Of a DNA stretch of 64,000 nt, positions 1,189-39,986 are shown piece by piece; the first letter of the stretch is position 1; every line of letters starts with the position of its first letter. The stretch comes from an uncultured Verrucomicrobiota bacterium (GTDB lineage Bacteria > Verrucomicrobiota > Verrucomicrobiia > Limisphaerales > MWDV01). The DNA is taken from assembly GCA_964548925.1 (NCBI GenBank), contig CAZJTM010000005.1, positions 1,689 to 65,688 on the forward strand. Reading direction: 5' to 3'. Under the pieces are notes generated by a model. The model made no database searches. It saw only the letters and a list, made by a program, of their open reading frames with translations, and was not told where the DNA came from. The position numbers were made by a program, and so were the translations under genes.

Positions 1189-1251
1189 TCCCAAGGATTC
1201 AGAGCGTTCAGGGATTGGTGGAAACTCCACGGATGCATGGGTTCGTGGGGA
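1189..1251. repeat. Family-1 repeat doublet (inverted pair of ~27-nt units)
   Basis: 1189-1216 reads tcccaaggattcagagcgttcagggatt. A degenerate inverted partner lies at 1225-1251 (16/27 match to consensus ATCCTTGAACGCTTCGAATCCTTGGGA). The same unit recurs at 30.6, 38.6 and 39.5 kb. Confidence 0.65.
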
Positions 1252-17085: not shown

Positions 17086-17745
17086 ATGACCTCGCAACAA
17101 ATCAGCGCGGTGAACGATCGCCTGCGATTCCAGTCGCCGCTGGAAATCGTGCGCTGGGCCATTGCCCAAAGCGGCGGGCGAGCCGTGATCTCGACCAACT
17201 TCCGTCCCTACGAGGCCGTGTTGCTCCATCTCTGTGTGCAGGTGCAACCGGACATCCCCGTGCTTTGGGTGGACCACGGCTACAACCGGCCCGCAACATA
17301 TCGTCACGCAGAGGAATTGCGGCATCGCCTGAAATTGAATCTCAAGACCTACCTGCCGAAACTTTCCGCCGCGCACCGCGATGCGGTTTACGGACCAATC
17401 CCAACACCGGAGGATGAGGCCGGGCTGAAGCAGTTCAGCGCGCTGATGAAGCTCGAACCCTTCCAGCGCGGCATGCGTGAGCTTGCACCCGCCGTTTGGC
17501 TTACCGCGCTCCGCAAAGTTCAAAACCCGCACCGCGCCGGACTCGATATCGTCTCCCACGACGCAAACTTCGGCACGCTCAAGGTCAACCCGGTGTTTTA
17601 CTGGAGCGACGCGGAGATGGAGGCTTATCTCAAACAACATGACCTACCCAACGAGTGGGACTATTTCGACCCCGCCAAGGCGGATGAAAAGCGCGAGTGC
17701 GGTTTGCACGCGGCGTGGGGACGCGAAGTCGTCGCGAAGGCGTGA
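17086..17745 (+). CDS. cysH: Phosphoadenosine phosphosulfate (PAPS/APS) reductase, cluster-less type
   Basis: VISTNFRPYEAVLLHL..., C-terminal ECGLH motif. No CC...CxxC iron-sulfur motif. The start is taken at MTSQQ (ATG 17086). Confidence 0.85.
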   Translation: MTSQQISAVNDRLRFQSPLEIVRWAIAQSGGRAVISTNFRPYEAVLLHLCVQVQPDIPVLWVDHGYNRPATYRHAEELRHRLKLNLKTYLPKLSAAHRDAVYGPIPTPEDEAGLKQFSALMKLEPFQRGMRELAPAVWLTALRKVQNPHRAGLDIVSHDANFGTLKVNPVFYWSDAEMEAYLKQHDLPNEWDYFDPAKADEKRECGLHAAWGREVVAKA

Positions 17746-17773
17746 CACGAATTGCCCGAATGCCCACGAATCC
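17746..17773. repeat. Degenerate direct 9-mers (cacgaattg / cccgaatgc / cacgaatcc) abutting the cysH stop
   Basis: cacgaattg (17746-17754) is the exact reverse complement of the tandem caattcgtg units at 18163-18180, on the other side of the GxxExxY gene. Confidence 0.6.
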
Positions 17774-17776
17774 CGC

Positions 17777-18151
17777 ATGAGCGAACTGATCTTCAAACAG
17801 GAGTGTTTCCAACTGGTCGGCTTCTGCATGGAAATCCACCGCGAATTGGGCAAGGGCCATGATGAAGTCATCTACAAGGATGCCCTCGTCGTTGAACTCG
17901 GCCGCGCGGGCATTCCCTTCTCCCGCGAAACGAAGTACGAGATCCGTTACAAGGGCGCACTTCTGCCACACCATTACTACGCTGACTTCGTCATCTGGGA
18001 CAGAATTCTCTTCGAGGCCAAAGCTGTCGAAAAACTGACCGATGCCCACGTTAAGCAAGTCCTCAATTATCTGGCCGCCTCCAGGTTGCGGCTGGGACTG
18101 CTGGTCAACTTCGGCGGCGATTCTCTGGAATGGAAACGCGTCATCCTCTGA
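17777..18151 (+). CDS. GxxExxY family protein (PD-(D/E)XK nuclease-like fold)
   Basis: MSELIFKQECFQLVGFCMEIHRELGKGHDEVIYKDAL (G-HD-E-VI-Y), ...DFVIWDRILFEAKA...QVLNYL...GLLVNFG. Confidence 0.8.
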   Translation: MSELIFKQECFQLVGFCMEIHRELGKGHDEVIYKDALVVELGRAGIPFSRETKYEIRYKGALLPHHYYADFVIWDRILFEAKAVEKLTDAHVKQVLNYLAASRLRLGLLVNFGGDSLEWKRVIL

Positions 18152-18162
18152 TCCATTGGTGT

Positions 18163-18180
18163 CAATTCGTGCAATTCGTG
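18163..18180. repeat. Tandem caattcgtg x2, inverted relative to 17746-17754
   Basis: Two exact adjacent 9-mers lie between the GxxExxY stop (18151) and the cysD ATG (18185). Confidence 0.6.
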
Positions 18181-18184
18181 TCAC

Positions 18185-30578: not shown

Positions 30579-30644
30579 TCCACAGGATCCGAAGCGACCG
30601 AGGGTGACTTCGATCTCATCCCTGAACGCGTTGAATCCCTGGGA
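30579..30644. repeat. Family-1 repeat doublet
   Basis: 30579-30605 (minus-orientation unit, ~20/27 to consensus) and 30618-30644 (atccctgaacgcgttgaatccctggga), 12-nt spacer. Confidence 0.65.
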
Positions 30645-30663
30645 AATTCGGGTGGTCCTGGAA

Positions 30664-30903
30664 ATCAACGCGTCGAATCCGAATTGGAGCGGCCTCCCCA
30701 TGAACCGCGGCGTAGCGGCGTCTCGGTAGAGCGCCGCAAACGCTTGGAAGCGAGAATGGCGGCGCTCTGCCGAGAAGCAGCTACGGTTTCAAATTGCAAG
30801 GCGCGAATCCTTGGGGGAATTCTCTCTGTGAACCGCCCTGACGATGCAGTGCGATCCACCGACCGGCAGGAGCTCTGCGTGAACGATGTAAATCCTTGGA
30901 AAG
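30664..30903. repeat. Three further plus-orientation family-1 half or partial units
   Basis: 30664-30688 (aacgcgtcgaatcc...), 30794-30818 (gcgcgaatccttggggga) and 30879-30903 (tgaacgatgtaaatccttggaaa). Confidence 0.5.
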
Positions 30904-34400: not shown

Positions 34401-35569
34401 CGCTTTATTTCATGACCACAGTGATGGACATCACCGCGCGCCAGAAGGCGGAGGCGGCTCAGGCGCGGCTGTTGCACATCCTGGAATCCAGCCTGAACGA
34501 AATCTACGTCTTCAAGGCCGACAACCTGCGCTTCGAGTACGTCAACCTCGGGGCGCTGCGCAATTTGGGCTACACCCTTGAAGCCCTGCGGCAGATGACC
34601 CCGCTGGATTTGAAGCCAGAATTCGACCGCGCGAAGTTCGATCAGATCATCGAGCCCCTGCTACGGCGCGAGAAGCCACTCCAGCTTTTTGAAACCGTGC
34701 ATCGGCGCGCCGATGGCTCGCTCTACCCGGTGGAGGTGCGGCTGCAACTTTTCGAGCACGAAGGCGACCGTGTCTTTCTGGCGGTGATTCAGGACCTCAC
34801 CGAGCGCAAACGACTGGAGCAGGAGCGGCAGGCGATGGAGGCCCAGTTGCGCCAGCAACAGAAACTGGAGTCCATCGGCACGCTGGCCAGCGGCGTGGCC
34901 CACGAGATCAACAATCCCATCACCGGCATCATGAACTACGCCCAGCTCATTCAGGACCGGCTGCCGGCTGACAGCCCCCTAACCGAGTTCACCGGCGAGA
35001 TCATGCACGAGACGCAGCGGGTGGCCGGCATCGTGCGCAACCTGCTGACCTTTGCCCGGAACGAAAAGCAAAGCCACAGCCCGGCGCAAATCGCGGACAT
35101 CGTCGAAGGGACGTTGTCCCTGATCCGCACGGTGATCCGGCACGATCAAATCACCTTGACGGTGAACGTGCCGGAGGACCTGCCGCAGTTGAAGTGCCGC
35201 AGCCAGCAAATCCAGCAGGTGTTGATGAACCTGATGACCAACGCCCGCGACGCGTTGAACGAGCGCTACCCCGGCCACGATCCGGACAAGGTGCTGAAGC
35301 TCGAGGTGAATCTGTTCGAGAAGGAAGGCCGCCGCTGGATTCGCGTGACGGTCGAAGATCACGGCACGGGCATCCCGCCGGAAGTGCGCGAGCGAATGTT
35401 CGATCCCTTTTTCACCACGAAGCCGCGGGACAAGGGCACGGGCTTGGGCCTGGCCATCAGCCACGGTATTGTCAAAGAGCATCATGGCCGGTTGACGGTG
35501 GAAAGCGAGCCGGGCAGATTCACGCGCATGCACTTGGAGCTCCCGGTGGATAATGGGTGGAGTCTATGA
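31427..35569 (+). CDS. Large multi-domain sensor histidine kinase (polytopic N-term, extracytoplasmic sensor region, PAS-GAF-PAS-PAS, HisKA-HATPase)
   Basis: N-terminal TM bundle. A second TM (ALFVVAIALALLLAAALGITVLW) follows a ~260-aa loop. PAS S-box-like segments are present. H-box GVAHEINNPI, N-box LMNLMTNARDA, G-boxes DHGTGI...GTGLGLAI. Confidence 0.85.
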   Translation: MNPTPPLLKFLSRFAVACAAGAGALALTGLIPWWLKLWQPFTFGPGFIPMAPTTALFLLLLVIACFLRAKTAVSRTGRALETTCLLVVLAGATPLGLQSLLSFSWPIEQWLSRTSETVGQIPVGRMSPLTAGCLVATALALLCGRVRAARWQPLRSLGGWLALAVFAVSGIVTIGYLAGKPFLYGGSTIPMALLTAIVFLLLSTATMLGAGSDAWPLRMFLRPHVVEDGSGPRHTVEWSLLWLFVVLIVGIAVLGLQYLNREQAKARLAAHAQLETIADLKVGQIVQWRKERLADANLVRYTPYATRRALDVLAQPNSANTRLTFTRWLEPLLAGGAYARVLLLDADLNVRLAHPPGSSDALADAVRAPAKQALQTKTVIMTDLHGAPADGHAHLDLLIPLVVRREASTEEVPPAGTTPSPADRSAGLLVLQVNAHDFLFPLIQAWPASTRTAETLLVRREGNEVLYLNELRHLPGTALKLRRPIDDPRLPAAMGLRGEKSVQQGVDYRGVPVVATARPIPDTPWVLVAKVDEAELYAPLRQQALFVVAIALALLLAAALGITVLWRRRNEHFLQAQLAAERELARAGRDWQTTFDAANDAIWTLDSQHRVLRSNRTAERFFHRPCGEMIGQPCWAIVHGTTQPLPECPVLRARKSLQRETMELRLADRVFEVCVDPILDDQGQYAGAVHIVSDITQRKAHEAEIERLNRLYATLSQVNQAVVRVKSREELAAEVSRVAVAFGGFKLAWVGQHHAETGAVTPVGSAGEPHAFVHDLRHSTADDAGHRCFCVPVIRENRPCVANNLAALREMHDQASAIIPAGIQAAAVIPIRVRGAVWGVFGVYSGEPDVFLEKEIALLEEAAMDVGYAIEHLDTEARRQAAETALRESEAQFKCFFEHSNVGKSITRPSGEVQVNQAFADLLGYSPAELENRTWQEVTHPEDVASTQQVVDALLAGERDSARFTKRYLHKNGSVVWADVSTTLRRDAAEQPLYFMTTVMDITARQKAEAAQARLLHILESSLNEIYVFKADNLRFEYVNLGALRNLGYTLEALRQMTPLDLKPEFDRAKFDQIIEPLLRREKPLQLFETVHRRADGSLYPVEVRLQLFEHEGDRVFLAVIQDLTERKRLEQERQAMEAQLRQQQKLESIGTLASGVAHEINNPITGIMNYAQLIQDRLPADSPLTEFTGEIMHETQRVAGIVRNLLTFARNEKQSHSPAQIADIVEGTLSLIRTVIRHDQITLTVNVPEDLPQLKCRSQQIQQVLMNLMTNARDALNERYPGHDPDKVLKLEVNLFEKEGRRWIRVTVEDHGTGIPPEVRERMFDPFFTTKPRDKGTGLGLAISHGIVKEHHGRLTVESEPGRFTRMHLELPVDNGWSL

Positions 35570-38500
35570 ACGCCGCCGGAAAGCCTGCCGGCTGCTTGCC
35601 GTCGCTGGGTCTCGTTCTGGCGGTTGCGGGGGCGTATGCGATCACGGCCAAGGTGAGTTTCCTCCTGACGATTTCTCCCGGGAACATCTCGCCGGTTTTT
35701 CCGGCGGCGGGTCTGGCGCTCGCGGCGGCGATCTTGCTGGGGCGCAAGGCTCTGGTCGGCGTCTGGCTGGGCTCGTTCGTCGCCAACACTCTCTCCTTTG
35801 TGGATGGCACGGTTTCGTCCGGGCTGGCACGCCCGCTGGACGTGTTGGTGGGCGCGGTCATCGGCCTTGGCGCCACCGCGGGTGCCGCTTTGGGATGCGA
35901 CTTGGTGCGGCGCTTTTGCCGCAACGAACCTCCGTTGCAGAGTGGCCGGAATGTGTTGATCCTCGTGCTGGTCGGCGCCCTGGGCTGCGCCCTGATCAGT
36001 CCCACCGTGGGCGTGAGCAGTCTGGCGTTGAACGGGAAGGTGCCGTGGGAGCAATTCGGACAAGCCTGGGTCACCTGGTGGGTTGGGGATGCCTCCGGGG
36101 CGCTCGTGGCAGCACCGCTGATCCTTGCGTGGGAACGGCAGCAACCAGTCCCAAAGCGCGCCTGGTGGGGCGCAGAAGCGGTCGCGCTGAGTGCGGTGAC
36201 CCTGGGGATTTGCCTTTTCGTCTTTTTCCGCCGCACTCCTTTCCAGTTCGTGCTGCTGCCGCTGGTCTTGTGGGCGGCGTTTCGCTTTGGCATGCGCGGG
36301 GCCGCCACCAGTGCCGCCGCCATCACGCTCTTCGCGGTGGTTGGCACCAGCCTGGGTACCAGCCCGTTCGTGAGAGCGACCGTTAATGAATCGCTCCTCC
36401 TGCTGAACTCGTTCCTCGCTGTCACCATTTCCTGCGCGCTCTTCCTCGCCGGTTTGTTGGAAGAGCAGGGGCGGGCCGCAACCGTCTTGCGCGAAAGCGA
36501 GGAGCGGTTCCGTCTGATCACGGAGAACCTCACCGACTTGGTGGCCGTGCTGGATGTGGAGGGACGCCGGCTCTACAACAGTCCCTCCTACCGCAATCTT
36601 CTGGGCGACCCCGATCAGTTGCGTGGGTCATCCTCTTTCGAACAAGTTCACCCCGAGGATCGGGAACGGGTGCGAAGTTCTTTTCACAAGACGGTGCGAA
36701 CGGGCGTTGGCGAGCGGTTGGAATACCGCTTGATGGACTTGTCCGGCCGGGTGCGCCACATCGAGTCGCAAGGCAGCGTGATCCGGGACGCGCAGGGACG
36801 AGTGGAGAAGGTGCTCGTCGTCTCCCGCGACATCACCGAACGCCGACAGGCCGAAGAGGCGCGGCGGGAGAGCGAGCAGAAGTATCGCGAACTCGTCGAA
36901 CATGCCAACAGTATCATCCTGCGCTGGAACGCCGAGGGTCACATCACCTTCCTCAACGAATTCGGTCTGCGCTTCTTCGGGTACGCCGCCGAAGAGATTT
37001 TTGGCCGGCATGTTATGGGAACGATCGTGCCGCCGTCGGAGAATGGTGGGCGCGATCTGCGGCAGCTCATGGAGCAGATTTGCGCTAACCCCGCGGCCTT
37101 CGAGCAGAACACCAACGAGAACATGCGTCGCAACGGCGAACGAGTGTGGATTGCCTGGACCAACAAGGTGGTACGCGACGCTCAGGGACAGGTGCTCGAA
37201 ATCCTGAGCGTGGGCACGGATGTCACAGCCCAGCGCCGGGCCGATGAGCAAATCCATCGGCTCAACGAGGAGCTTCAGCGCGACGCGGTGGAATTGGAGC
37301 AGCGGGTCGCCGAGCGCACAGAGGCGCTCCGCGCCCTGTCGCTTCGCCAGCACGCGTTGGCGGAAATCGAACTGGCCATCAACCAGCCCCACGAACTGCG
37401 CGCCGTACTCGACCAGATTGTCGAATGCGTCACGCGCCTCGTGTCTGCCAGCGGCGGCGCCAGCGTGATTCTATGGGATGAAGCGCAGCAACGCTTCGAC
37501 TTGTGCGCCACCACCGTACCGCAACAGTCCGCCCAGGAGGCGGCCCGGCGGGTCCGTCCACGCGGCGGCGCCACCCGTTGGATTCTTGAGCACCGGCAAC
37601 CGTTGCTCGTGCCGGACATCCGCGAGTCCCCGCTGGCCGCCAACCCGATGTTGGAGGACTTCGGGTTGCGGGCGTTTGCCGGCTTCCCGTTGCTCACCGA
37701 CGGCCGGGCGCTCGGGGTGTTGTTCGTGCAGAGCAAAGAACCCCGCGTCTTCACCGCGGAAGAACGCGACTTTTTGGAAGCGATGGCCACACGGGCGGCG
37801 GCGGCCATTTCCAAGGTGCGCACCTACGAGGAACTGGCCGCGGCCAAAGAACGCGCGGAAGCGGCGGATCGGATCAAGTCTGCCTTCCTGGCCACGATGT
37901 CGCACGAATTGCGCACGCCGCTTAATTCGATCATCGGCTTCACGGGCATCCTTTTGCAGAAGCTCGCCGGGCCGCTGAACCCGGAGCAGACGAAGCAGCT
38001 CGAAATGGTGCGCAGCAGCGCCCGCCACTTGCTGGCGCTCATCAACGACGTGCTCGACATTTCCAAAATCGAAGCCGGCCAGCTCACGGTTGCGTGCGAA
38101 CCCTTTGATCTGCCCGCCTCGATCCGCAAGGTCGTCGGACTGGTGAGGCCGTTGGCCGAAAAGAAAGGGCTGGCGCTCCACGTGCAACTCGCGCCGGAGT
38201 TGGGCCGGATCGTCAGCGATTCGCGCCGCGTTGAGCAGATTCTCCTCAACCTGGTCAACAACGCCATCAAGTTCACCGAGCAAGGCGAGGTGAAGCTCAC
38301 GGCTGAAGGCATCCCGGGAACAGAGGCCGATGGTCGCCCCGCATTCCGCATTTCCATCGCCGACACCGGCATCGGCATCAAGCCCGAGGACTTGGCGACG
38401 TTGTTCCAGCCGTTCCGGCAGGTGGATACCGGGCTGACACGACAACACGAAGGCACGGGCTTGGGGCTGGCCATTTGCCGGCGGCTGGCGGACTTGCTGG

Positions 38501-38628
38501 GCGGCGAGATTACCGCCCGCAGCGACTGGGGCAGAGGCAGCGTGTTCACCGTCACCCTGCCCATAGAACCAAAAGGCAAAAAGGAATCTCCCCCAGGGAT
38601 TCAAAGCGTTCAAGGATTGCAGGCATGA
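35557..38628 (+). CDS. MASE1-PAS-PAS-GAF sensor histidine kinase
   Basis: The N-terminal ~300 aa have 8 TM with ISPVFPAAGLALAA...WWVGDASGALVAAPLIL (MASE1-like). H-box MSHELRTPLNSIIGF. NLVNNAIKFT, DTGIGI, GTGLGLAI. It overlaps the upstream kinase by 13 nt. Confidence 0.85.
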   Translation: MESMNAAGKPAGCLPSLGLVLAVAGAYAITAKVSFLLTISPGNISPVFPAAGLALAAAILLGRKALVGVWLGSFVANTLSFVDGTVSSGLARPLDVLVGAVIGLGATAGAALGCDLVRRFCRNEPPLQSGRNVLILVLVGALGCALISPTVGVSSLALNGKVPWEQFGQAWVTWWVGDASGALVAAPLILAWERQQPVPKRAWWGAEAVALSAVTLGICLFVFFRRTPFQFVLLPLVLWAAFRFGMRGAATSAAAITLFAVVGTSLGTSPFVRATVNESLLLLNSFLAVTISCALFLAGLLEEQGRAATVLRESEERFRLITENLTDLVAVLDVEGRRLYNSPSYRNLLGDPDQLRGSSSFEQVHPEDRERVRSSFHKTVRTGVGERLEYRLMDLSGRVRHIESQGSVIRDAQGRVEKVLVVSRDITERRQAEEARRESEQKYRELVEHANSIILRWNAEGHITFLNEFGLRFFGYAAEEIFGRHVMGTIVPPSENGGRDLRQLMEQICANPAAFEQNTNENMRRNGERVWIAWTNKVVRDAQGQVLEILSVGTDVTAQRRADEQIHRLNEELQRDAVELEQRVAERTEALRALSLRQHALAEIELAINQPHELRAVLDQIVECVTRLVSASGGASVILWDEAQQRFDLCATTVPQQSAQEAARRVRPRGGATRWILEHRQPLLVPDIRESPLAANPMLEDFGLRAFAGFPLLTDGRALGVLFVQSKEPRVFTAEERDFLEAMATRAAAAISKVRTYEELAAAKERAEAADRIKSAFLATMSHELRTPLNSIIGFTGILLQKLAGPLNPEQTKQLEMVRSSARHLLALINDVLDISKIEAGQLTVACEPFDLPASIRKVVGLVRPLAEKKGLALHVQLAPELGRIVSDSRRVEQILLNLVNNAIKFTEQGEVKLTAEGIPGTEADGRPAFRISIADTGIGIKPEDLATLFQPFRQVDTGLTRQHEGTGLGLAICRRLADLLGGEITARSDWGRGSVFTVTLPIEPKGKKESPPGIQSVQGLQA

Positions 38629-38666
38629 GTTCTTCATCATCCATGAACGCTCTGCATCCTTGGAGA
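38589..38666. repeat. Family-1 repeat doublet
   Basis: 38589-38618 (tccccagggattcaaagcgttcaaggatt) and 38639-38666 (atccatgaacgctctgcatccttggaga), 20-nt spacer. It overlaps the last codons of the kinase. Confidence 0.7.
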
Positions 38667-38683
38667 GCTATTCTTGGAATTGT

Positions 38684-39496
38684 ATGGCTGAGATAGATGA
38701 TCCGCTGAGTTATGCCGTCATCGGGATGGCGATGGCCGCGCACCGGGAGCTTGGCCCGGGGCTGGACGAGGCATTCTATCACGAACTGCTCGCGCGGAAG
38801 CTGACCGCCGCCGGCATCCCGCATGAAACGAAGCCGCGTGGCAAGCTTCTACACCGAGGAAGAGTCGCGGATGAATTCGAGGCGGACCTCATCGTGGAGG
38901 GAAGGCTGGCAGCAGAGTTGAAGGTGCTTTGGGGCGACTTCGCGCCGGAACATCTGCTGCAACTCATCTGTTACTTGAAGTTCTGGCGGCTTGATGCGGG
39001 TCTGCTGTTCGACTTCGGCAAAGAGAGTCTCGCGCAAAAACGCGTCCCCCGGCTTGACCGCGCGACGGCCTTTGACCCGGCGTCAATGCAGCCGGAGTCC
39101 CCGGTCAGCGGTCCGGAGCGTTCTCTCGTGCGGGAGATCCTGGATTCACTGCACGCGGTCTTGACCGAGTTTGGCTTGGGCTATCGGGATAGCACCTATC
39201 GCGGCCTGCTGTTGGCAGAGTTGCTGCACCGGAAGATTCCGTGTGCGGAGCACCCCACGGTGGCCATTCGATCGGGCGATGTGCTGCTTGGTGAAGCCAA
39301 ACTGCCATGTCTGATTTTGCCCGGGCAGGCGGCACTGCTCATCACTGCCCTCCGCGAAACCCGTCAGGCCGCCGACCGCGCGGTGCTGCAAACCTGTCTT
39401 CGCCACCTCGATCTTACCTGGGGTTTGCTTCTCAACTTCGGCAAAACCCGGCTGGATTGCCAACTTGTAAAACCCCCGATGCGCCGCAGCGGATGA
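38684..39496 (+). CDS. Tandem-duplicated GxxExxY protein (two PD-(D/E)XK-like modules in one ORF)
   Basis: Module 1: YAVIGMAMAAHRELGPGLDEAFYHELL...DLIVEGRLAAELK...GLLFDFG. Module 2: ILDSLHAVLTEFGLGYRDSTYRGLL...LPCLILPGQAALLITAL...GLLLNFG. The start is taken at ATG 38684. Confidence 0.75.
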   Translation: MAEIDDPLSYAVIGMAMAAHRELGPGLDEAFYHELLARKLTAAGIPHETKPRGKLLHRGRVADEFEADLIVEGRLAAELKVLWGDFAPEHLLQLICYLKFWRLDAGLLFDFGKESLAQKRVPRLDRATAFDPASMQPESPVSGPERSLVREILDSLHAVLTEFGLGYRDSTYRGLLLAELLHRKIPCAEHPTVAIRSGDVLLGEAKLPCLILPGQAALLITALRETRQAADRAVLQTCLRHLDLTWGLLLNFGKTRLDCQLVKPPMRRSG

Positions 39497-39503
39497 AATT
39501 GCT

Positions 39504-39596
39504 TCCCATGAATTCAAAGCGTCCACGGATTGAAGGCGAGGAACAGTCCCCGTTACTCCACTTTGCCAGATCCTTGAACGCTTCGAATCCTTGGGA
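39504..39596. repeat. Family-1 repeat doublet
   Basis: 39504-39531 (tcccatgaattcaaagcgtccacggatt) and 39570-39596 (atccttgaacgcttcgaatccttggga). The arms are complementary at 22/27 positions, with a 38-nt spacer. Confidence 0.7.
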
Positions 39597-39614: not shown

Positions 39615-39986
39615 ATGAGTGCGAAAATCCTCCTGATCGAAGACAACGAACAGAATTGCTACCTCGCCACGTTTCTGCTGGAGAAGCACGGCCACACGGT
39701 GATTCACACCCCGGATGGCCGGTCGGGCATTGAACTTGCCACCGCCCAGCCCTTCGATCTCATCCTGCTGGACATCCAGTTGCCCGGCATGGATGGCCAC
39801 GCCGTGGCGCGGGCGCTGCGGTCAAACCCCGCCCTCAACCACATCCCGATTGTCGCGGTCACATCCTACGCCATGGCCGGCGACCGCGAGAAGGCGCTTG
39901 CCGCCGGCTGCAATGGCTATCTCGAGAAACCCATTGATCCGGACACCTTCGTCGCCCAAGTTACCTCCTTCTTGTCATCTTTATGA
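39615..39986 (+). CDS. Stand-alone response regulator receiver (CheY-like)
   Basis: MSAKILLIEDNEQN...FDLILLDIQLPGMDG...VAVTSYAMAGDREKALAAGCNGYLEKP. Confidence 0.9.
   Translation: MSAKILLIEDNEQNCYLATFLLEKHGHTVIHTPDGRSGIELATAQPFDLILLDIQLPGMDGHAVARALRSNPALNHIPIVAVTSYAMAGDREKALAAGCNGYLEKPIDPDTFVAQVTSFLSSL

Follow-up and report, generated by a model that had tools for sequence, protein, structure and literature searches.

Heptamer-based repeats at the borders of two subfamilies of GxxExxY genes in Verrucomicrobia

A 64,000-nucleotide (nt) stretch of DNA from an uncultured Verrucomicrobiota bacterium (contig CAZJTM010000005.1 of assembly GCA_964548925.1, positions 1,689 to 65,688), the whole of which is called the window here, encodes a two-domain protein of the GxxExxY family. 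Its gene, an open reading frame (ORF) of 270 amino acids at 38684..39496 on the plus strand, is bracketed on both sides by doublets of a 27-nt repeat unit (family 1), while a single-domain gene of the same family elsewhere in the window has borders of a different kind. Across Verrucomicrobial metagenome-assembled genomes (MAGs), these two GxxExxY subfamilies show a specific, conserved and co-varying association with two heptamer-based kinds of repeat. We see about an even chance that gene and repeats form one module, in which a nuclease of PD-(D/E)XK fold is paired with its own recognition repeats, in the manner of REPINs (hairpin-forming doublets of repetitive extragenic palindromic, or REP, sequences) and RAYTs (REP-associated tyrosine transposases). 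Recognition of the repeats by the protein, action at the level of DNA, cleavage, and a role in the spread of the units are what we infer from this association.

Two-domain genes and their repeat units

A scan of species-representative genomes supplied a sample of 22 loci with a two-domain gene. For each gene the 200-nt flanks were compared for their best inverted or direct match, and the gene was called bracketed at a score of 35 or more. This score was reached by 17 of the 22 two-domain genes, and shuffled flanks never scored above 29. The same procedure applied to other, non-adjacent genes of the same loci gave 0 of 84 (Fisher p ~1e-15). When lineage-specific variants of the repeat are read by eye, at least 20 of the 22 two-domain genes are bracketed. 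The density of units is 5.49/kb within 300 nt of two-domain genes versus 0.168/kb elsewhere in the same loci, and units with two half-sites occur at only 0.015-0.05/kb in loci of the single-domain clade. In the two-domain gene family, bracketing is both conserved and specific. A chance origin of the repeats and of the bracketing is ruled out by the shuffles together with the control genes.

The units of the two-domain loci (designated by L numbers below) share an architecture of CCC, a heptamer ending in GAT or AAT, TC, about seven purine-rich bases and a second, similar heptamer; the two half-sites are direct and 16-18 nt apart. Examples are CCCAGGGATTCAAAGCGTTCAAGGAT from the window, CCCGCAGATTCAAAGCGACCGCAGAT from L014, CCACACCGATTCAGGGCGGAACACAGATT from L028 and CCCCACGAATTCAGGACAACCACGAATG from L016. 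Layouts vary around this common unit. The doublet-gene-doublet order of the window is found also in L015, arrays of doublets flank the gene on both sides in L022, L028 and L014 (27 units in the last), three units upstream face three inverted units downstream in L026, and a single unit per side, in inverted order, is present in L016, L020, L021 and L023. Two-domain genes in L016 and L019 have the CACGAAT heptamer that is also used by single-domain cassettes. In L014 (2778-5277) about 27 units alternate, at a period of about 120 nt, in an array that reaches 1.2 kb upstream and 0.5 kb downstream of the gene. Units of plus and of minus orientation belong here to two related types, CGCAGAT and CGCCGAT, and the gene seems to have a frameshift close to its 3' end.

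Four units lie at the cassette in the window. On the outside of the left doublet is unit 1 (38591..38617, minus strand; plus-strand sequence CCCCAGGGATTCAAAGCGTTCAAGGAT), whose direct half-sites, CAGGGAT and CAAGGAT, stand 17 nt apart. It pairs with unit 2, the inner unit of the same doublet (38639..38665, plus strand), which was located by a hidden Markov model (HMM) of the unit, and the two form a 25-nt stem with a 21-nt loop. The right doublet has unit 3 as its inner member (39504..39530, minus strand; found with the unit HMM) and unit 4 as its outer member (39570..39596, plus strand), an exact match to the consensus given by the original prediction. Units 1 and 4, the outermost pair, are 92% complementary. 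The original prediction, made from the letters of the window, had described exactly this bracketing by two hairpin doublets, each with a minus unit, a spacer and a plus unit. With up to three mismatches allowed, the consensus has three matches in the window versus none in 100 shuffles, and the unit HMM finds six strong copies in the 64 kb, four of them at the cassette. Both doublets fold as long hairpins (z -3.9 to -5.3 versus shuffles), and they fold better on the antisense strand. A lone unit (1180-1225) folds no better than its shuffles (z -0.7). The unit by itself is not a palindrome; it is made of two direct half-sites.

Profile searches identify both GxxExxY genes of the window as clear members of the family. 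The 270-residue protein matches PF13366 (PDDEXK_3), the only Pfam family it matches, with 112.7 bits against a cut-off of 22 (E 1.6e-32), and TIGR04256 (GxxExxY) with 121.2 bits against a cut-off of 35 (E 2.9e-35). Each model aligns to two stretches, and both GLDEAFY and GYRDSTY are present, which bears out the two GxxExxY modules originally read in this ORF. The two halves resemble each other weakly (28% over 100 residues). The N-domain (residues 1-122, nt 38684-39049, plus strand) keeps E29, D68, E78 and K80; a linker of residues 123-143 joins it to the C-domain (residues 144-262, nt 39113-39469, plus strand), in which the catalytic residues are lost (GYRDSTY, C209). At least 120 proteins of about 265-300 amino acids, most of them from Verrucomicrobial MAGs, align over the full length at 46-74% identity, and the architecture defines a conserved subfamily rather than a local fusion. 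In an alignment of 35 sequences the four N-domain residues are invariant, and the C-domain has GYRDTTY for GxxExxY, Cys for Asp, and no ExK. The protein looks like a pseudo-dimer with one active site.

A confident AlphaFold model of the protein (pLDDT 92.4, pTM 0.88) has as its best Foldseek matches Cas4, exonucleases of the lambda type, restriction-endonuclease-like proteins and Hjc, which confirms the PD-(D/E)XK-like fold that had been predicted. No solved structure is matched by the two-domain protein at the level of sequence, no match was obtained among defence-system or phage families, and viral contigs, scanned with the alignment of two-domain proteins, yielded no relative. In several two-domain proteins the C-terminal ...PNLRG or ...SNLCLP is read from a unit lying across the stop codon; unit-derived tails are seen also at L020 2708-2731 and L023 4806-4829, and in proteins P0053, P0083 and P0112.

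The whole cassette is inserted between the histidine kinase and the response regulator of a sensor operon, the position named in the original prediction. The upstream kinase (35557..38628, plus strand) has the architecture MASE1-PAS-GAF-HisKA-HATPase_c, with HATPase_c ending at residue 1004 of 1023. Its final ~12 codons run through unit 1 (window 38589-38628), and its stop codon (38626-38628) lies between the two units of the left doublet. The response regulator (39615..39986, plus strand), consisting of a receiver domain only, starts 18 nt past unit 4 and overlaps the start of the next gene, a hybrid kinase. The operon can be called tightly packed because its neighbouring genes overlap (35557/35569 and 39983/39986).

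A related species (L011) has a protein 74% identical to that of the window within the same kinase-cassette-regulator-kinase order, and retains all four units. Between the two loci the units are identical at 88 of 108 positions (24/27, 21/27, 20/27 and 23/27 for units 1 to 4), versus 29 of 96 for spacers and gaps, including 4/21 for the spacer of the left doublet and 11/39 for that of the right. Because of this synteny, and because the units are better conserved than the spacers, we consider the cassette to be old at its kinase-regulator site and its units to be under constraint. The comparison of orthologous kinase-regulator junctions proposed with the original prediction consists of this one locus, in which the cassette is present, syntenic and complete in its four units.

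Homologues at 71, 67 and 62% identity occur in three unrelated contexts (CBM48/glycosyltransferase, RhaA/VWA and TPR/DUF7133), and all carry the unit type of the window. Two loci from the same MAG, L023 and L030, have different unit types, CAAAGAT and CGCAGAT. Over 19 loci, protein identity correlates with unit similarity (Mantel r = 0.24, p = 0.01), a correlation to which host ancestry contributes. Contigs that encode the identical protein P0005 in flanks that are otherwise identical show, immediately downstream of the gene, an 87-nt indel (L197 3580-3900; L198 2112-2345; L199 1005-1238), equal to one doublet period. Arrays change within short times, and simple recombination of one repeat with another is a possible cause.

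Single-domain cassettes and the wider family

The second GxxExxY gene of the window, found by tblastn, encodes 124 amino acids (17777-18151) within a cassette at 17742..18184 on the plus strand. The ends of this cassette are 30-nt inverted repeats (17742-17771 and 18155-18184), with three CACGAAT-type heptamers per arm. It occupies precisely the space that separates a cysH-like from a cysD-like gene; the upstream stop codon is inside the left arm, and the downstream ATG comes directly after the right arm. A search with the 124-residue protein gave 11,277 clusters at 50% identity, with E values up to 1e-3, and GxxExxY members are multi-copy in many genomes. Against defence-system and phage families the single-domain protein gave a marginal match only (E 0.009).

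Related cassettes were sampled from 80 Verrucomicrobial MAG loci of many lineages, with proteins 72-85% identical. In 85% of 79 of these loci the 120-nt flanks share an inverted match of at least 30, a level reached by 0 of 790 shuffles. Each arm has three heptamers, spaced 9 and then 10 nt from start to start in 120 of 121 motifs. The heptamer motif is present at 8.29/kb within 120 nt of the single-domain gene versus 0.075/kb elsewhere, and the motif of three heptamers is absent near two-domain genes. The specificity is therefore reciprocal, each kind of repeat being absent or nearly absent near the other kind of gene. Both kinds of cassette, each with its own repeats, are present in one genome in the MAG JAYWBR01 (L017 and L095), as they are in the window.

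Three conserved contexts of the single-domain gene are distinguished. The cysH-cysD context, with at least 29 loci, has the heptamers CACGGAT/CACGAAT; the second, with a longer ORF, has CGCGAAT/CGCTAAT; and the third has CACGAAT/CACTAAT. Several MAGs hold two of the three contexts, and the heptamer variant tracks the paralogue. Within the cysH-cysD group, mean conservation is 81% for the GxxExxY protein versus 86% for CysD, and the two proteins show a weak correlation (Mantel r = 0.26, p = 0.0015). Conservation so close to that of CysD fits a long vertical residence at the site. In L043, L047, L050, L060 and L088, and in the two-domain locus L016, the start codon begins within the innermost heptamer (CACGA-ATG), and a recognition-like motif thereby shares bases with translation initiation. 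Truncated single-domain ORFs of 8-115 codons are found at conserved cassette sites in L055, L102, L109 and L114; these are probably decaying copies or assembly errors.

Outside Verrucomicrobia, a small sample of nine loci from seven species was taken from a plasmid and chromid collection. Inverted arms with three heptamers flank the gene in Bacteroides finegoldii (L325; CRCRGAG, between radA and a gene for an FAD protein), Bernardetia (L329; CACAGAG, between ade and a guanylyltransferase gene) and Sphingomonas (L324; CGCGARG, between fabD and fabG). The Prevotella gene, among genes for hypothetical proteins, has three ACAAATC heptamers in direct orientation. One Gemmatirosa locus (L330, an unannotated record) has three CTCTGCG heptamers upstream only, and another (L328) a CGCGGAT hairpin downstream only. 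Flanking repeats are weaker or unclear in Treponema, Fusobacteria and Persicobacter, where the contexts are varied. In L324, L325 and L329 the GxxExxY gene is co-directional with its neighbours within a conserved operon, with gaps of just 2-60 nt. These loci suggest that bracketing is a family-wide feature. In the plasmid collection the family was found in 8 of 72,556 records, all of them typed as non-mobilizable.

A broader proposition, which we hold tentatively and at somewhat less than even confidence, is that all GxxExxY proteins are sequence-specific nucleases with their own sites, as fixed-spacing arrays of heptamers, at both borders of the gene. They would make up an ancient, so far unrecognised class of self-bracketed cassettes, seated within operons in several phyla, from which the Verrucomicrobial two-domain fusion would have yielded REPIN-like doublets in the absence of an HUH transposase.

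Dispersed units, mechanism and competing explanations

Units of family 1 also occur away from GxxExxY genes: at two further sites in the window, on four contigs of one MAG and at many metagenome loci. Within the window these are a solo unit at 1189..1215 on the minus strand, with no GxxExxY gene nearby, and a solo doublet at 30579..30644, composed of a degenerate unit (30579-30605, minus) and a good one (30618-30644, plus). Weaker fragments of the unit reach to about 30900, in an 800-nt gap that precedes the first kinase gene of the sensor operon, and this cluster of doublet and degenerate fragments (30579-30900) may be a decayed array. A strict 26-nt pattern matched nine loci in genomes, with doublets in other Verrucomicrobial MAGs and no GxxExxY gene within about 4 kb; doublets are seen in L003, L005, L006, L007 and L010. 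A looser 21-nt pattern with 17 specified bases, for which tens of chance matches are expected in so large a collection, matched at least 120 metagenome loci. Among those listed, 74 have a real unit and 20 a clear doublet, and the remaining ~46 of 120 are probably chance matches. Viewed from the gene, the enrichment of units is very strong; viewed from the repeat, most copies are solo, as is also the case in REPIN-RAYT systems.

In the reading we favour, that of a nuclease and its recognition repeats, the two-domain protein would be a pseudo-dimeric nuclease with one intact active site. Its target would be duplex DNA, in the form of the heptamer half-sites that are paired within each 27-nt unit, with one domain binding each half-site and only one domain catalytic. 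Its action on the units would be binding, and probably nicking or cutting; given a single catalytic domain, the nick or cut would be asymmetric, at units or at extruded doublets. More speculatively, the nuclease activity may maintain local arrays and seed solo doublets, and the module would on that account be a functional analogue of a REPIN-RAYT system. The module would be old, with mostly vertical inheritance wherever it is established. On a longer scale, gene and repeat type are found together in other gene contexts, and the population of units would derive from the module. The two-domain module may itself be a derived form of a family-wide bracketing by heptamer arrays.

Several points weigh against this reading. 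Shared ancestry of host, gene and repeat can in part produce the co-occurrence and co-variation that lie behind the proposed recognition, and errors in MAG binning could undercut the argument from two unit types in L023 and L030. Neither for kinase-regulator nor for cysH-cysD was an empty junction obtained; the scan for such junctions used the downstream hybrid kinase as query and gave only generic kinases from many phyla. Recent mobility is unsupported, because the cassette is syntenic in L011 and single-domain cassettes are fixed across many species. What the original prediction called a possible selfish module of repeat and nuclease is thus strongly supported as a partnership of gene and repeat, by the 17 of 22 bracketed genes versus none of 84 controls, and is not borne out as something selfish or mobile. 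Long residence at single sites, rarity on plasmids and absence from viral contigs all speak against a fast-moving element and fit a vertically inherited resident. From the side of the repeat, 0 of the 74 listed metagenome loci with a real unit hold a GxxExxY gene in the stretch retrieved. In L313 (3247-4933), a RES toxin/Xre-MbcA-ParS antitoxin pair lies between direct repeats of about 190 nt that are about 93% identical, with a family-1 doublet in each. GxxExxY genes are therefore not the only cargo that doublets can bracket, and the gene-free metagenome units together with this toxin-antitoxin pair mean that doublets might be independent of the protein.

That independence is the core of an alternative in which the doublets are a REP-like family of their own, maintained or spread by other machinery, and serve as a landing pad at which small selfish cassettes insert or are captured; the protein would recognise the units just as an insertion target, or not at all. 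The layout of L313 keeps this alternative alive, the solo state of most units (with no GxxExxY gene in any of L003-L010) favours it, and the direct order of doublet, gene and doublet resembles that of target duplication or of paired attachment sites. We nevertheless judge it unlikely. Units are about 33-fold concentrated around the gene relative to the rest of the same loci, and unit type goes with the protein clade across unrelated contexts, two genes of a single MAG having different types. The single-domain clade, moreover, is bracketed by heptamers that are nearly absent elsewhere, so bracketing needs no dispersed repeat family. An explanation at the level of the host, to which we assign a rather low probability, would have a resident DNA-binding or nuclease protein with arrays as its operator or loading sites, serving for example autoregulation or a site-specific break or recombination function, with no mobility and no spread of repeats. 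In its favour are the very long residence of the gene, as at cysH-cysD in at least 29 loci with conservation near that of CysD, and the rigid spacing of heptamers, which cooperative binding of protein would give; rarity on plasmids and the lack of two-domain relatives in viral contigs agree with it also. It leaves unexplained the solo doublets, the arrays of up to 27 units (L014) and the changes of context, and a housekeeping function would not usually go with several paralogues in a genome that differ in their heptamer variants.

We think it very improbable that the hairpins are RNA or transcription elements, that is, processing sites, stabilisers, terminators or insulators that keep the inserted gene apart from the host operon, in which the protein has no part. 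Such elements would account for the folding of both doublets far beyond that of shuffles, and for hairpins located exactly at ORF borders within an operon; the arms of the single-domain cassette could likewise pair and bring the upstream stop beside the downstream start. Mismatches between arms, however, are mostly transversions, and changes that would keep a G-U pair in the sense RNA are not enriched (20 vs 20 in single-domain arms, 21 vs 37 in doublets). The doublets of the window fold better on the antisense strand, and direct repeat arrangements, which cannot pair, occur as well as inverted ones. What is conserved is the heptamers and their spacing, rather than the pairing. Rfam 15 gave no match in the whole window and chance-level matches only around the cassette, and a known RNA family was dropped as a candidate accordingly. 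No T run follows either doublet and neither has a terminator-like site or a promoter, and an intrinsic terminator was dropped as well. An RNA looping-out across the single-domain cassette, similar to that of an intervening sequence (IVS), was considered and then discarded on account of the spectrum of mismatches and the existence of direct-repeat variants. Heptamers at a spacing near the helical turn, in either orientation, have rather the look of protein sites on double-stranded DNA.

Relation to known systems and significance

REP/REPIN-RAYT systems, reportedly described by Nunvar in 2010 and by Bertels and Rainey in 2011, rely on TnpA_REP, an HUH Y1 transposase related to IS200/IS605. In one study (bioRxiv 10.1101/2021.07.10.451892, PMC8266576), their inheritance is mostly vertical and long-lasting. 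GxxExxY cassettes are similar in that one protein gene is flanked by its own short repeat; in inverted, hairpin-forming doublets (in the window, five genome loci and 20 listed metagenome loci); in dispersed solo doublets and mostly vertical inheritance; and in a repeat type that is tied to gene lineage, such that gene copies in one genome differ in type. They differ in having a PD-(D/E)XK protein (PF13366) in place of an HUH tyrosine transposase (Y1_Tnp), two direct heptamer half-sites in place of a palindrome with a GTAG-type head at its 5' end, and local tandem arrays of doublets around the gene; nor is a single-stranded-DNA mechanism indicated here. Because the fold of the enzyme and the structure of the unit fail the tests that define REP/RAYT, the system is not a member of that group. 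The resemblance drawn in the original prediction accordingly holds for dispersed solo doublets and for unit types that follow the clade, and breaks down at the PD-(D/E)XK protein and the non-palindromic unit. The open-access titles and abstracts searched on REPINs and RAYTs point to no link to a GxxExxY-type gene flanked by repeats.

Homing endonuclease genes, which include a PD-(D/E)XK type in I-Ssp6803I, offer a second comparison. Free-standing ones resemble the GxxExxY cassettes as small nuclease genes located between the halves of what appears to be their own recognition sequence, and L016, L020, L021 and L023 can be described as a solo doublet with the gene in its loop. Unlike homing endonucleases, the cassettes involve no intron or intein, their sites are multi-copy arrays of half-sites, and the gene stays put across species with no sign of the usual alternation of invasion and decay. 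REP-targeting insertion sequences (IS1397, ISKpn1, and ISPpu9/ISPpu10; PMC8450116 for ISPpu9) likewise put a gene-bearing element inside or between REP-like palindromes. Those elements encode DDE transposases, have terminal repeats of their own and use REPs as mere targets, whereas the cassettes have no transposase and a repeat type that co-varies with the gene.

TnsA and the Rpn/YhgA-like nucleases share the restriction-endonuclease-like fold. The ends of Tn7 carry several ordered protein-binding repeats, but TnsA does not bind these end repeats itself and acts with TnsB, TnsC and TnsD/E; GxxExxY cassettes, unlike Tn7, encode one small protein. We know of no bracketing of Rpn genes by cognate repeats. 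Integron attC sites were considered and rejected: the ends of the doublets read CCCnnGGATTC / GAATCCnnGGG and lack a GTTRRRY core (RYYYAAC...GTTRRRY), although no search for an integrase was made. The cassette, moreover, is located within a sensor operon rather than in an array of cassettes.

GxxExxY/PDDEXK_3 has been catalogued as a predicted nuclease fold with no function (Steczkiewicz et al. 2012, PMC3424549). In the open-access library searched, the names of the family occur in a handful of papers and in no title or abstract, one passage refers to the domain in passing, and the searches of titles and abstracts gave no account that links the family to flanking repeats. If each gene does have its own recognition sequence at its borders, the function of the family becomes directly testable from the heptamer, its spacing and its orientation. 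With the units of the two-domain genes, a REPIN-like population of repeats would for the first time be linked to an enzyme that is not a RAYT; to our knowledge, REPIN-like repeats have not been described in the phylum Verrucomicrobia. Such a system would bear on how short repeats persist in bacterial genomes, and paralogues with distinct heptamers would constitute a natural set of small nucleases of different specificity. A large family of no known function thereby gains a concrete and testable candidate for its DNA target.

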